In this document: in pieces, positions 29,630 to 34,274 of the stretch | Numbering within the stretch: position 1 is the first letter of the stretch | Layout: each line of letters starts with the position of its first letter | Assembly (NCBI GenBank): GCA_048882045.1 | Contig: JBHLRZ010000001.1 | Coordinates: forward strand, 160,001-224,000 | Length of the DNA stretch: 64,000 bases | Direction of reading: 5' to 3' | DNA from: Candidatus Thorarchaeota archaeon | Lineage (GTDB): Archaea; Asgardarchaeota; Thorarchaeia; Thorarchaeales; Thorarchaeaceae | The notes under the pieces: generated by a model | Databases searched by the model: none | Told to the model about the DNA's origin: nothing | What the model saw: only the letters and a program-made list of their open reading frames with translations | Program-made: the position numbers and the translations under genes

Positions 29630-29649
29630 TCAGCGGAGCTGTGATTAGA

Positions 29650-30909
29650 ATGACAAATTACAAGGTAAAAGACATTGGACTTGCTGAAGAGGGGCGTATG
29701 CTGATCGAGTATGCCGAGAAGCACATGCCAGTGTTGATGCATCTTCGCAAGAAGTACTCAAAGTCCCAACCACTGAAGGGCATGAAGATTGCTGGGTGTC
29801 TTCATGTGACAAAGGAAACAGCAGTTCTTGTAGAAACACTTCGGGCTGCTGGAGCTGAGGTCGCATGGTCGGGCTGTAATCCACTCTCCACAAACGACAA
29901 GGTAGCAGCTGGTCTGGCTGCTAATGATGTGCCAGTGTTTGCGTGGCATAATCTCAACACCGAGGAGTACTACTGGTGCATAGAGCAGACTTTGAAGACA
30001 GAGCCTACATTGACCCTTGATGATGGTGCAGATCTCATTTTTACACTTCACAACAAACACACAGAGCTCATTCCCAATCTGTATGGCGGTTCTGAAGAAA
30101 CCACAACAGGTGTGATTCGAGTCCGTGCTATGGCAGATGATGGAGCTCTCAAGTATCCGATAATGGCTGTCAACGACGCAGATACAAAGCACCTGTTTGA
30201 CAATGTATATGGGACTGGGCAGAGTGTCTTTGATGGCGTCATGAGAGCTTCAGCTATCCTGATTGCTGGAAAGACCGTTGTCATTGGTGGTTACGGCTAC
30301 TGCGGTCGTGGAATGGCTGATCGTGCAAGAGGACTTGGTGCAAACGTAATCGTCACTGAAGTAGATCCTGTCCGTGCTCTGCAAGCACGAATGGATGGAT
30401 TCAGAGTCATGAAGATGAGTGACGCTGCTCCTGAAGGAGACTTATTCCTCACAGCAACAGGAATGAAGGATATTGTCACTGGTGAGCACTTCAAGGTCAT
30501 GAAAGACGGTGCTATGTTTGGTAATGCTGGACACTATAATGTCGAGATAAACGAACCAGATCTCATTGCTCAGAGTAAAGGTCCGAAGAGGAGAGTTCGT
30601 CATGCTCTTGACGAGTATGAGCTCAAGGACGGTCGCCGCCTCTACTTATTGGGAGAGGGGCGATTGGTAAACCTGGCTGCTGCAGAAGGACACCCAAGCG
30701 AGGTTATGGATCTCTCATTTGCATCTCAGTTGAACGCTATGATCTGGATGACCAAGCATGGTAAAGACCTCAAACCAGCGGTGTACGAGTTCCCTAAGGA
30801 ACTGGACAACGAAACTGCATTGGCCAAACTCGAAACAATGGGCATCAGCATAGACCAATGGACAGAAGAGCAAGAACGCTATGCAAAAGCATACGCTGAA
30901 GGTACTTAG
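29650..30909 (+). CDS. ahcY: Adenosylhomocysteinase
   Basis: GCLHVT.ET, CNPLST, LDDGAD, EETTTG, KHLFDN.YGTGQS, GYGYCGRG, NAGH, GRLVNL.AAEGHPSEVMDLSF. Confidence 0.97.
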   Translation: MTNYKVKDIGLAEEGRMLIEYAEKHMPVLMHLRKKYSKSQPLKGMKIAGCLHVTKETAVLVETLRAAGAEVAWSGCNPLSTNDKVAAGLAANDVPVFAWHNLNTEEYYWCIEQTLKTEPTLTLDDGADLIFTLHNKHTELIPNLYGGSEETTTGVIRVRAMADDGALKYPIMAVNDADTKHLFDNVYGTGQSVFDGVMRASAILIAGKTVVIGGYGYCGRGMADRARGLGANVIVTEVDPVRALQARMDGFRVMKMSDAAPEGDLFLTATGMKDIVTGEHFKVMKDGAMFGNAGHYNVEINEPDLIAQSKGPKRRVRHALDEYELKDGRRLYLLGEGRLVNLAAAEGHPSEVMDLSFASQLNAMIWMTKHGKDLKPAVYEFPKELDNETALAKLETMGISIDQWTEEQERYAKAYAEGT

Positions 30910-30917
30910 AACAAAGT

Positions 30918-30953
30918 GAGTGGGACATGAATTCCCACTCGATCTTTTTCTTT
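30918..30953 (+). terminator. Hairpin GAGTGGGA-CATGAAT-TCCCACTC plus T-tract after ahcY
   Basis: Perfect 8-bp stem followed by GATCTTTTTCTTT. Confidence 0.6.
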
Positions 30954-31104
30954 GCTTAAAAGTCTGATTTCATTTCTTGGTTCCATGAAGGTACTATTTG
31001 GATGATGTGCGTAAAGAATTAGAAAGAGAGATACTGAAACCCTTTCCCTTTTATTGTGCTGTTCACGTTCTATAATCATTTTATTATTCTAGGTTTGATA
31101 TCAT

Positions 31105-31680
31105 ATGACTAAAATCAAGATTGATCAAAGATTTTCTCCCTATCAAATGCCAAGTGTGATTATAGGTACAATCGTGAATGACCGGCCTAACTTCATGTTA
31201 TGTACTTGGGCAAGTCGTGTTAATCGAAATCCACCTACGTGGATGGTTTCAATTAATACAAAACATTACACGATGACTGGCATTAGAAAGAACAAAGTAT
31301 TCAGTATGAATCTGCCTTCAGCCAATCTTATTCAGCTAGCTGATTACATAGGTACCAATTCGGGACGTGAAATAGACAAGTCTTCACTGTTTGAGATATT
31401 CTATGGTGAAACAAAAGCTCCAATGATAATGGAGTGTGTTCTCAATATGGAACTTGAGGTTATGCAGATAATAGAACTGCCGGATCACTTCGTGGTTCTG
31501 GGGACTGCTGTGACTTCCTATGTTGATGATAGGAATATGACCGATAACAAACCAGACTTGAAGAAGATGAATCCTGTTGTTTACACCGGGGCTGAAAAGC
31601 AACCAACATATTGGACGCTTGGTGAAAAGATTGGAGATGCTTTTAAACTGGGAAAAGAATTCAAGGGACTCAAAACCTGA
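31105..31680 (+). CDS. Flavin reductase family (flavoredoxin-like) protein
   Basis: P..IIGT...PNFM..W, HYT..GI.....FS.N.P, SGR..DK, AP.I.EC, H..V.G. Confidence 0.85.
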   Translation: MTKIKIDQRFSPYQMPSVIIGTIVNDRPNFMLCTWASRVNRNPPTWMVSINTKHYTMTGIRKNKVFSMNLPSANLIQLADYIGTNSGREIDKSSLFEIFYGETKAPMIMECVLNMELEVMQIIELPDHFVVLGTAVTSYVDDRNMTDNKPDLKKMNPVVYTGAEKQPTYWTLGEKIGDAFKLGKEFKGLKT

Positions 31681-31730
31681 GGAGAGAATAGTTGTAGAAG
31701 GTTAATCAGGAAGAGTTCTTTCTATTGTCG

Positions 31731-31965
31731 CCCTTAGGTCCCTTTTCCTTCCTTCGTTTTAGTTTGAGGGTTGTGACCATTCCTTTCTCCTTGAGGTCCT
31801 TCTTGGATATATCTCCTTCTGACATAGAGAAGAATTTACTTCCATATTGCTTCACTTTCTCCCAATCTATGGGGAAGCCTAGACCAGGTTCCTGTGGAAT
31901 CTTTAAAAACCATCAGAGGGTATGATAGATAATGTGAGGATACCATCTCTGAATTCAGGTGTCCA
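31731..31965 (-). pseudogene. 3'-end fragment of the mandelate-racemase-family gene (diverged copy of 33040..33275)
   Basis: Collinear with the 3' end of 33036..34274; 26 bp identical at the junction (ataccatctctgaattcaggtgtcca); 1-bp deletion near 31905. Confidence 0.85.
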
Positions 31966-32177
31966 AGCGAGGTTATGGATCTCTGATTTGCATCTCAGTT
32001 GAACACGATGATCTGGATGGCAAAGAAAGGTAAGGACCTCAAACCGGCCGTCTATGAGTTTCCGAAGGAGCTTGACAATGTAACAGCCATGGCAAAATTG
32101 GAAACCATGAGAATCTCCATTGACAAGTGGACCGAAGAACAGGAGCGATATGCCAAAGCATACGCACAGGTACTTAA
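31963..32177 (+). pseudogene. ahcY: 3'-end fragment of ahcY (diverged copy of 30694..30909)
   Basis: Encodes ...IWMAKKGKDLKPAVYEFPKELDN..AMAKLETM.ISID.WTEEQERYAKAYA; TCA->TGA at 31984, 1-bp deletion near the end, no 5' part. Confidence 0.9.
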
Positions 32178-32355
32178 TTGAGAGAAAGGATCTATAGAGA
32201 GTATTCTTTCTCTAATTTCCTTATCATTTTTCCCCAAGATCAGAGTTAAACATCATCCAAGATTGTGCTTTCTCATATTTCGTGACATAATTTTGTTGAC
32301 CCAACAATAGCCAGCTGATAGTATCCATTCTACCAGTTGCGGAGTCGAATCTGTA

Positions 32356-32991
32356 TCATTCGATTTCAATTCCAGCAGAATCAGAAGACTCCTCTCGAAC
32401 CATCTCAGCTAATAATCTGATACGTACGCGGCCATGGTACTTCTTGAGGAGTCTGTTTGACGGATCTAGAACCACTGCCTGTCCGATAGATTTGTCAGCA
32501 TCCAGAAATCGCTCAAACCCGTAAAGAAGACCACCAAGCATCCACCAAGCATCAGAAAAACTCGGGTCATATTCGAGCGCTTTTCTTAGGACCTTCTCGG
32601 ATTCAATCATCTCATCAAGAAAAGCATTTGTTGATGCCCATAATCGCCAAGAGTCAAGATCATTCGGATTCTTCTTTGTCTGTTTCTTGGCAGTCTTCAT
32701 CATCTTCCTCAACTCTTTGGGTGTGAGGTGAAGGGGATCCTGATTTAAAATTTTGAACAAGATGTGATTGAATGGCAGTAACATCAGCATTCTTTCTCGA
32801 ACCTCTACACGCACAAAATACCTACCGAATACTTCTTGCATCTGCCGCGATGTAAGAGGGACTCCAACTTGATACCGATGTCTTGGTTCGACATGCTGCC
32901 AAGCTTTTGACATCAAGCTCTTCACAAGTAGAATTTCAGGATTCCTGAAGAAGTCTTCAGGGATGTCTTGTATTTCGAGGAAGTCATACAC
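32356..32991 (-). CDS. TPR-repeat protein
   Basis: NPNDLDSW...ALEYDPSFSDAWWMLG...AVVLDP TPR pattern. Confidence 0.75.
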   Translation of the reverse strand: MYDFLEIQDIPEDFFRNPEILLVKSLMSKAWQHVEPRHRYQVGVPLTSRQMQEVFGRYFVRVEVRERMLMLLPFNHILFKILNQDPLHLTPKELRKMMKTAKKQTKKNPNDLDSWRLWASTNAFLDEMIESEKVLRKALEYDPSFSDAWWMLGGLLYGFERFLDADKSIGQAVVLDPSNRLLKKYHGRVRIRLLAEMVREESSDSAGIEIE

Positions 32992-33035
32992 GAAAATCCC
33001 TCTTTATGTTCTAACGGTTGCATCTTCCTCTGTTA

Positions 33036-34274
33036 TCATCCCTTCGACTCCTTGTCCTTTCTTCTCTTGAGTTTGAGAGCTGTGACCATTCCTTTCTCCT
33101 TGAGGACCTTCTTGGATAAGTCGCCTTCAGACATAGAGAAAAATTTCCGCCCAAATCGCCTGACTTTCTCCCAGTCAATGGGAAGACCAAGACCAGGTCC
33201 TTGTGGAAGGTCCAAGTAGCCATCAGATGGAATGATGGGAGATACGAGTATACCATCTCTGAATTCAGGTGTCCATGATCCAGGTTCATGTGGATATTCC
33301 AGGGGCTGTTCTCCACCTGTCAATGCATGGACATGCATGTTTGTCATGAGACCAAGTCCGTTGGTCCAAGTGTGAGGGCTGAAGCCAAGTCCTTTGCTTG
33401 TTGCGGCCTCAAGTGTCTTCAGAGTATCTTTGAAACCAAAAACAGTGACGTCAGGTTGATAGATGTCGAAACTATCGAAATGAAGGAACATTCGAGCCTC
33501 ATGCCATCCCGCATTGAGTTCAGCACCTGCTAACTTGATGGGACTGTATTTTCTGAGCTCTGCCATTTCCTCGTATGCATGCCAGTCGAGGGGCTCTTCT
33601 AACCAGTGAATATTCTGATCACTCACACCATCGACGAATTTCTTTGCTCGGGCTAGGTTCCAGAGGGGAGGTCTGTCTACAATGGTCACAGCCCAACCTT
33701 GGTTCGCATCGACCATCAGTGGGAAGTCTGGGTCTATCAGCGACCGAGTGTCGCGTATTGCTTTGATGTCTTCTTCAATGGTCTTTGACTTCACACGAAG
33801 CTTGACTCCTTTGTAGCCTTCTTCATGTGCCTGTCTGGCTATCTTTGCATGATGCTTCGGATCGCACACAGAACCTGTGGACCAATAGACTGGAATAGGT
33901 TTGTCCTTTCCCCCAAGCATCTTCCAGACAGGAACATCCTCGGACTGAGCCTTGATATCATAGAACGCTGCTTCCATCCAGTAGTTTCTCCATCCTAAGT
34001 AGGATGCCTCTTTGATTCTCTGGTGTGCCAAATCAAGGTCACAAGGATCCACTCCAAGAACATAGGGAGCTAGTAAACCACCAAGACCTTCTCGCTCCTC
34101 CCCAAATGCCACACCTGCAGCGTTTCCAGTCAGACCTGTATCTGTTGTCAGTTGGAGGAGGGTGAATCGATTGTGGGTCTGTGGATATCCCGGTATCCAA
34201 GAAGAATAGAATGGTTTCTTGAGTGGGATTGAAATGTGATACATGTCGACCTGTGTTATCTTCATACGACGCAC
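33036..34274 (-). CDS. Mandelate racemase/muconate lactonizing enzyme (enolase superfamily) protein
   Basis: PVWKMLGG, KLR, MVDANQ, WLEEP, GAE, QPD, PH. Confidence 0.9.
   Translation of the reverse strand: MRRMKITQVDMYHISIPLKKPFYSSWIPGYPQTHNRFTLLQLTTDTGLTGNAAGVAFGEEREGLGGLLAPYVLGVDPCDLDLAHQRIKEASYLGWRNYWMEAAFYDIKAQSEDVPVWKMLGGKDKPIPVYWSTGSVCDPKHHAKIARQAHEEGYKGVKLRVKSKTIEEDIKAIRDTRSLIDPDFPLMVDANQGWAVTIVDRPPLWNLARAKKFVDGVSDQNIHWLEEPLDWHAYEEMAELRKYSPIKLAGAELNAGWHEARMFLHFDSFDIYQPDVTVFGFKDTLKTLEAATSKGLGFSPHTWTNGLGLMTNMHVHALTGGEQPLEYPHEPGSWTPEFRDGILVSPIIPSDGYLDLPQGPGLGLPIDWEKVRRFGRKFFSMSEGDLSKKVLKEKGMVTALKLKRRKDKESKG

Follow-up and report, generated by a model that had tools for sequence, protein, structure and literature searches.

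How can an archaeon gain a gene between two conserved genes, keep both of them whole and show no recognisable mobile element at the site? The question is raised by a 64,000-nt stretch of DNA (the window) on contig 1 of G000, a metagenome-assembled genome (MAG) of a Candidatus Thorarchaeota archaeon that comprises 93 contigs and is 93% complete. Here, the genes for S-adenosylhomocysteine hydrolase (ahcY) and for a member of the MR/enolase superfamily (MR) enclose two different cargo genes, between which lie a second 3' end of MR and a second 3' end of ahcY. We regard the locus, with moderate confidence, as a stack of two alleles of a variable slot downstream of ahcY, built by two-step, site-directed stacking. 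The reading draws on the class-wide reuse of one break position in ahcY and on signs that the 3' end of this gene is exchanged between lineages.

Genes and pieces in the window were called from a listing of open reading frames (ORFs), pairwise alignments and Pfam scans. The intact ahcY gene (29641-30909, + strand, 422 aa; PF05221/PF00670) is followed by a flavin reductase-like gene (31105-31680, +; PF01613, E 5e-22), which is the cargo of the first, ahcY-proximal unit. Next come a 260-nt MR 3' piece on the - strand (31706-31965), covering residues ~333-412 to the stop with one 1-nt deletion, and a displaced 216-nt ahcY 3' piece on the + strand (31963-32178), which aligns to residues 352-422 of ahcY and is disabled by an in-frame TGA (31984-31986) and a 1-nt deletion near its end. 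The second unit is completed by a TPR-like gene (32356-32991, -; a weak PF23914 match below the Pfam cut-off) and the intact MR gene (33036-34274, -; PF13378/PF02746). This is the stacked order, ahcY-cargo-MR piece and then ahcY piece-cargo-MR, that an earlier reading of the window from its letters alone (the sequence-only reading) had described, and every feature was recovered where it had been placed, with full-length reading frames for both flanking genes. Next to ahcY 3' ends, a flavin reductase is found repeatedly, 8 times in 7 genomes, and homologues of the TPR-like gene are present in G012. Among the stacks compared, only this window has the end of its cargo (MR) repeated downstream.

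The two pieces share a CCA (31963-31965), which can be read directly in the sequence and marks a non-homologous junction. On both sides of it the pieces are nearly identical to the intact genes, as the same reading had noticed: a 42-nt ahcY tract (30694-30735, +) is repeated at 31963-32004 with 41/42 identity, and a 26-nt MR tract (33250-33275, -) at 31940-31965 with 26/26. Because the ahcY tract is among the least conserved parts of the gene, with 55-88% identity between species, a 41/42 match goes far beyond what would be expected. Conservation is fairly high in the MR tract (24/26 in G021, the closest relative, whose MR has 92% amino-acid identity to that of the window), so its perfect match is only mildly unexpected.

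When the exact protein sequences of the flavin reductase and the TPR-like gene were looked up, 11 public contigs were found, all 11 of them stacked. In all eight contigs whose DNA was examined, from two NCBI MAGs and the six Logan-assembled sequencing runs SRR24270831/2 and SRR30758829/33/34/35, the 71 nt of the junction are exact, and the surrounding 2.8-2.9 kb are 99.8-100% identical. The sequence-only reading had allowed that the junction might be a strain chimera of the assembly; an identical junction in eight independent contigs refutes this as far as public data go. The junction is genuine, and it is fixed in the samples recorded so far.

Beyond the near-identical tracts, identity with the intact genes falls to 74% in ahcY and to about 78% in MR. 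The differences lie mostly at third codon positions (9/4/27 at positions 1/2/3 in ahcY and 10/10/28 in MR), and each piece carries only one or two disabling changes, a stop and 1-nt deletions among them. By the Nei-Gojobori method, the ratio of non-synonymous to synonymous divergence (dN/dS) is 0.06 for the ahcY piece against the intact ahcY (dS about 1.4) and 0.13 for the MR piece against the intact MR (dS about 0.95), in agreement with the earlier proposal that the divergence arose under purifying selection. Given the third-position bias, the low dN/dS and the few disabling changes, the two sequences of each gene must have diverged while still functional, in separate lineages. These ratios, which are not near 1, rule out a local duplication that then decayed neutrally. 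Simple tandem duplication was likewise rejected: the unit ends are doubled, but the cargo differs, the ends are 20-26% divergent and dN/dS is 0.06-0.13.

To place the junction in a wider context, we surveyed junctions by a DNA search within the genus and then by a protein search of 87 Thorarchaeia genomes (17 genera), and lined up the loci. Extra ahcY 3' pieces were found in at least 16 of the 87 genomes. Ten junctions from eight genomes (G000, G007, G010, G015 with three, G042, G061, G063 and G077) start exactly at the equivalent of position 30694, between the His and Pro codons of GHPSEVMD; this recurrent break site (30688-30700, +) reads GGNCAY/CC, with 30694 as the first base of the pieces. 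Four further junctions (G004, G012, G020 and G021) start 15-33 nt further in, so that 10/14 of the well-preserved junctions fall on one base and the remaining 4/14 lie 15-33 nt downstream. Among the shorter, older pieces, several start still further into ahcY. No piece reaches more than 7 nt upstream of the 30694-equivalent base.

The 400-nt upstream flanks of the 14 junctions share no common homology or motif, except for a flavin-reductase remnant in G000 and G004. As the flanks are unrelated, the junctions represent independent events. A pyrimidine stands immediately before the junction in 10/10, and the two or three bases ahead of it frequently mimic the CAY of ahcY, a pattern that fits either the use of terminal microhomology or a cleavage-site preference. 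The sequence-only reading had described a fusion at a CCA microhomology; with ten junctions on one base and a break point that recurs throughout the class, the ahcY side is not an arbitrary microhomology event.

Several related loci have features of their own. Directly upstream of its displaced ahcY piece, G004 carries a second flavin reductase that is truncated at the 5' end (residues 60-189; L033:5769-6401), which suggests nested or successive events at one locus. Beside a displaced piece in G015 (G015:C5, L041:273-3203), the cargo encodes 976 aa that include a GHKL/HSP90-like ATPase region, and the gene may be of the defence type. On the related metagenome contig Ga0209536_100000381 (L174:4062-4164), 6 nt separate the flavin reductase stop from an N-terminal portion of MR (residues 44-75), which is antisense, has 89% nt identity to the window and lies at the end of the contig. 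This contig has either lost most of MR or holds another junction, and it is evidence that relatives can have flavin reductase and MR side by side.

Evidence for exchange of the ahcY 3' end comes from sliding identity and from phylogeny. The ahcY genes of G011 and G043 are about 96% identical before the conserved ATGATCTGG block, 54 nt past the break site, and about 78% identical beyond it. A second pair, G086 and G075, drops from 93% to about 70%, beginning about 27 nt before the break site. In the window, identity between gene and piece drops from a conserved block (GCNATGATYTGGATG; 30736-30751, +) that is a place of homologous crossovers. The crossover that had been suspected near 30735 is thus real, the G011/G043 switch falling at the same point, just past the conserved ATGATCTGG block.

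Trees built from the 5' part of ahcY (1050 nt) and from its 3' part (213 nt) differ widely, the 3' trees (58 ends) being weakly supported on 213 nt. The two ahcY 3' ends of the window separate on the tree: the one attached to the gene belongs to a clade (SH-aLRT 95) that also contains G022, G002 and the piece displaced in G042, and the displaced one joins the 3' end of G021. The last ~170 nt of the intact ahcY, from about 30736, are of a lineage type unlike that of the displaced piece. The displaced pieces of G042 and G077 look like the 3' ends of those genomes to which the respective 5' part is related, and in G042 it is the attached end that is the outlier. As a general rule, the attached end seems to be the newcomer and the piece the former resident.

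Based on these data, we propose the following history. In a first step, which comparison with relatives shows for Thorarchaeia, the last ~170-215 nt of ahcY and the DNA downstream are swapped between lineages by homologous recombination, with crossovers in a few conserved nucleotide blocks. Alleles of one species then agree as far as about 30735 and differ by about 25% beyond; the two alleles here would carry the flavin reductase and the TPR-like gene, respectively, and each would end in MR. In a second step, ahcY would be broken at the fixed position 30694, between the His and Pro codons, and joined non-homologously, at the CCA microhomology, to the MR 3' end of the other allele (33275). The second allele would thereby be added, not substituted. 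An addition by this join would explain why both genes are intact, why there is one decaying copy of each end and why 42 and 26 nt beside the junction are resident-like. Because the fixed break position in ahcY is reused across the class, the process would be site-directed, and the pattern as a whole suggests a hitherto undescribed, site-directed addition of genes without a visible mobile-element gene.

Several points weigh against this history. We infer the second step from the pattern only, and no site-specific breaking enzyme was found, the scanned cargo holding neither a recombinase nor a nuclease gene. Near-identity beside the junction occurs in only 2 of about 10 genomes, G000 (41/42) and G061 (about 62/66 between gene and piece); the core differs at 8-10 positions within 42 nt in G042, G007 and G015. 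No unstacked flavin-reductase or TPR allele of this species occurs among the 11 public contigs. As for the donor, searching with nothing but the MR piece gave no match, and no closer MR allele is present among 120 database homologues, the best C-termini being those of the window's own MR (76%) and of G021 (74%). A one-step event that brought in a foreign MR end is also conceivable, as the 26/26 tract is only mildly significant. Finally, most of the genomes compared are MAGs, and to this comes the weak support of the short 3' trees.

The strongest of the other explanations is accretion of the integrase type, in which ahcY would contain an attachment (att) site for integrase-less cassettes mobilised in trans and the 41/42-nt repeat would be the att core. 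Each cassette would bring its own ahcY 3' end, restore the gene and push the old end outward. The precise and recurrent break point and the stacks of up to 4-6 pieces are what this would predict, and the near-identical direct repeat, at 42 nt, is as long as archaeal att sites are reported to be, 29-69 bp (PMC6563490). In the same study, 14/68 thaumarchaeal integrated elements lie in the 3'-distal parts of protein genes, some of them in tandem (PMC6563490). We nevertheless consider this explanation unlikely, for the searches did not find its machinery. In a search for PF00589 integrases, in which all 14 control genomes gave matches, there was no match in the whole genomes of G000, G004, G007 and G239 (the last from a second Asgard family described below) or on the stack contigs, including those of G015, G020, G209, G231 and G234. 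In keeping with the sequence-only reading, the Pfam scan and the PF00589 search found no integrase or other mobile-element gene in the insert. Moreover, the unrelated 400-nt upstream flanks of the 14 junctions contain no conserved element-side arm. The cargo ends cut through ordinary genes (MR in the window, flavin reductase in G004), which argues against a dedicated element arm, and an identical core of gene and piece is missing in most genomes. G000 has no PF00589 match at 93% completeness, though a XerA-type recombinase would be expected in an archaeon.

Other element genes were sought in the cargo and near ahcY. The largest cargo ORFs of five Thorarchaeia stacks and of G239 contain no replication, integration or transposition genes (Pfam, PHROGs and NCBIfam); they encode NosD/beta-helix proteins, methyltransferases, MsrA, an AsnC-type regulator, GHKL and STAND ATPases and many unknowns. 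LAGLIDADG endonucleases (PF14528) had no match in G000 and none near ahcY in the 87 genomes, where only inteins or ORFs elsewhere were matched; HNH and GIY-YIG families were not searched. Published accounts of Asgard mobile elements (PMC11529989, PMC8813620) do not mention ahcY.

Three further candidates were rejected. An integron cassette array does not fit a locus without a tyrosine recombinase, in which the boundaries are copies of gene ends without a common hairpin. An RNA-guided nuclease was rejected because the genome holds, within 3 mismatches, no second copy of the break-site sequence that could serve as a guide. The idea of a retro-copy of the 3' part of a transcript was prompted by co-oriented cargo that ends shortly after a gene in G239, G007 and the window; it was abandoned in view of the antisense cargo in G004, G015 and G021 and of pieces that start upstream of the splice site described below.

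A distinctly less probable explanation than accretion is that the region 30694-33275 was duplicated in tandem within the lineage, by replication slippage at CCA, and that a double homologous crossover later put a foreign allele in place of the interior. Both unit ends are doubled only in this genome, and resident-like tracts on both sides of the junction would be left by such a duplication. The right-hand crossover, however, must then fit within 26 nt of homology, and the explanation by itself leaves the left break at a class-wide site unaccounted for. It is topologically close to the two-step model that we prefer, from which it differs in the order of events.

We find it harder still to accept a one-step insertion, of the homology-facilitated illegitimate or the Campbell type, with an ahcY end point set by a chance CCA microhomology. 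A homology-facilitated or Campbell-type origin is what the sequence-only reading had proposed for the locus, and the ingredients of a one-step insertion are there: one homologous side, a 3-nt microhomology junction, divergence of the foreign type and no mobile-element genes. The homologous anchor, seen as the switch from resident to foreign ahcY at about 30735, and the microhomology junction at 31963-31965 are both present. Nevertheless, ten independent junctions on one base of a 1269-nt gene are beyond chance. A Campbell crossover would leave donor sequence at 30694-30735, yet this tract is 41/42 identical in a part of the gene with 55-88% identity between species. Resident-like tracts on both sides of the junction are not explained by one step and fit two steps better. 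What survives of the earlier proposal is that a relative's allele was added without a mobile element, as the foreign-lineage divergence and the lack of element genes indicate; the single chance event is disfavoured.

An artefact, be it two strains joined in the assembly or a local copy decaying neutrally, might be suspected in a 93-contig MAG whose relatives' contigs frequently break just past ahcY, and it is almost certainly not the explanation, given the exact 71-nt junction and 2.9 kb at 99.8-100% in eight contigs, six runs and two MAGs, and dN/dS values of 0.06 and 0.13 rather than about 1.

A mini-intron site lies close to the fixed break point in ahcY. In 11 of the 87 Thorarchaeia genomes, ahcY contains an insert of 31 nt (32 nt in one genome) at HPSE/VMD (L037:2238-2268 in G007; also L082-L086, L088, L145, L146 and L152-L159). 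By alignment and folding, it is predicted to form a canonical bulge-helix-bulge (BHB) structure with a 4-bp central helix (CTAG/CTAG), two 3-nt bulges and an inner hairpin that carries compensatory changes. The predicted cut past the second base of the bulge removes 31 nt (32 in the one genome) and restores HPSEVMD, as expected of a tRNA-type BHB intron. The ahcY gene of the window lacks this intron. A distance of 7 nt separates the recurrent break site from the predicted 5' splice site downstream of it, and none of the pieces that begin at the break site contains the intron.

The intron and its downstream exon appear to travel together. In G007, the attached 3' exon contains the intron and is divergent (68% amino-acid identity to the window, vs 86% for the 5' part); a piece of the genus type (82%) that follows 1.5 kb downstream, after a NosD-like gene, has no intron. 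On the 3' tree, most of the intron-bearing 3' exons group together, although their 5' parts are scattered. Extra pieces occur in 3/11 intron-bearing genomes vs about 14/66 others, counts that are uninformative as to whether the intron goes with fewer pieces.

A second Asgard family extends the comparison. Across 221 Asgard genomes sampled, ahcY had a single match nearly everywhere outside Thorarchaeia, one other family excepted, in which about 15 of 121 genomes sampled have extra ahcY pieces. In G239 of this family, a full ahcY is followed by five downstream 3' pieces within about 20 kb (L194, L195; G239:C22:8000-40000). Most of these pieces lie just behind one or more co-oriented cargo genes and one behind a gene on the opposite strand; the cargo includes unknown proteins, a STAND NTPase and a PPDK-like gene. 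Pieces in this family start around residue 317-330, not 352. Its ahcY also has a BHB intron, a different one, found in five genomes at DIE/IPT, about residue 312 (L195:4874-4905 on the - strand in G239; L200-L203), with a length of 32 nt (30 in one). Four of the five introns have an ATTG/CAAT central helix, AA/A bulges and a 9-bp hairpin with compensatory changes, and the 30-nt intron of G269 (L203) has an AAT bulge and a different compensating hairpin. The best-preserved pieces of the family start 6-36 nt downstream of the family's own intron site.

A break in the intron-less allele beside the intron insertion site is thus seen in both Thorarchaeia and the second family. That break points adjoin the lineage's own intron in two lineages, at two intron positions, is a correlation. 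Because the pieces of two Asgard families start within about 35 nt of their own, different intron site, the ahcY break may be causally tied to the BHB mini-intron, a tentative idea to which we assign a low probability. An activity would cut intron-less alleles beside the intron site, repair would copy in a foreign 3' exon, with or without the intron, together with downstream DNA, and a second end that met no homology would be joined non-homologously, leaving the old 3' exon behind.

At this locus, an Asgard archaeon gained a gene while keeping both conserved neighbours, and the class-wide reuse of one site turns what looked like a one-off scar into a process open to study. A preprint on Asgard tRNA introns states that the manner of intron arrival remains open (10.64898/2026.10.13.758758). 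With a break that adjoins the BHB site in two lineages, ahcY offers a concrete, testable locus for this question. If the break is tied to the intron, the locus would represent a homing-like route for the spread of archaeal mini-introns and, at the same time, a mobile-element-free route of gene addition in Asgard genomes. There are also practical consequences. Contigs end 0.1-4 kb past ahcY in several genomes (G013:C15, G015:C92, G020:C266, G022:C5, G042:C29 and G012:C184), which fits repeated ahcY ends or strain variation breaking assemblies there; repeated ahcY 3' ends would explain why many Thorarchaeota contigs break right past this gene. The displaced pieces are, in addition, a warning against calling them paralogues.

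Known systems resemble parts of this process. In replacement-type flexible genomic islands, such as polysaccharide loci, flanking genes become mosaic by homologous exchange. As at ahcY, a variable slot lies between conserved genes, break points fall in the flanking genes and gene ends hitch-hike, and these islands would fit the first step; the alleles of the ahcY slot, however, are sometimes added instead of swapped, leaving displaced gene ends. Homing of introns, or intron-less homing, is driven by site-specific endonucleases, for example those of archaeal rRNA introns or SegF of phage T4. There, too, the break in the intron-less allele is fixed beside the intron site and the 3' flank is co-converted, and the ahcY intron and its downstream exon likewise appear to spread horizontally. 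In contrast to homing, the ahcY intron of 31 nt encodes nothing, no LAGLIDADG endonuclease gene lies near ahcY and the second end is joined non-homologously.

Homology-facilitated illegitimate recombination, which de Vries and Wackernagel reportedly described in 2002 in naturally transformable bacteria, shares with the ahcY locus a homology anchor on one side, a 3-nt microhomology on the other and the absence of a mobile element. Its end points are scattered, whereas at ahcY ten independent events end on one base. In Streptococcus thermophilus, integrase-less cis-mobilizable elements (CIMEs) accrete with ICESt1 and ICESt3 at the 3' end of fda, where stacks of cargo are separated by copies of the 3' end of the target gene, as they are at ahcY. 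Those arrays need a known tyrosine integrase and defined att sites, neither of which was found at ahcY.

Archaeal mobile elements integrate site-specifically into the 3'-distal parts of protein genes, including in tandem arrays (Krupovic et al. 2019, PMC6563490). Compared with these, the ahcY locus differs in that no integrase, casposase or other element gene was found, that the repeat is a whole 215-nt gene end with 74-88% identity instead of a short identical att site and that the far end of the insert is an arbitrary point in ordinary chromosomal DNA, which in the window is the truncated MR. The two have in common a fixed insertion point close to the 3' end of a conserved gene that stays whole, direct repeats on either side of the insert and arrays that grow as the site is reused. 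Site-specific integration into the 3'-distal parts of archaeal protein genes (PMC6563490) is therefore the closest described kind to what we observe at ahcY.

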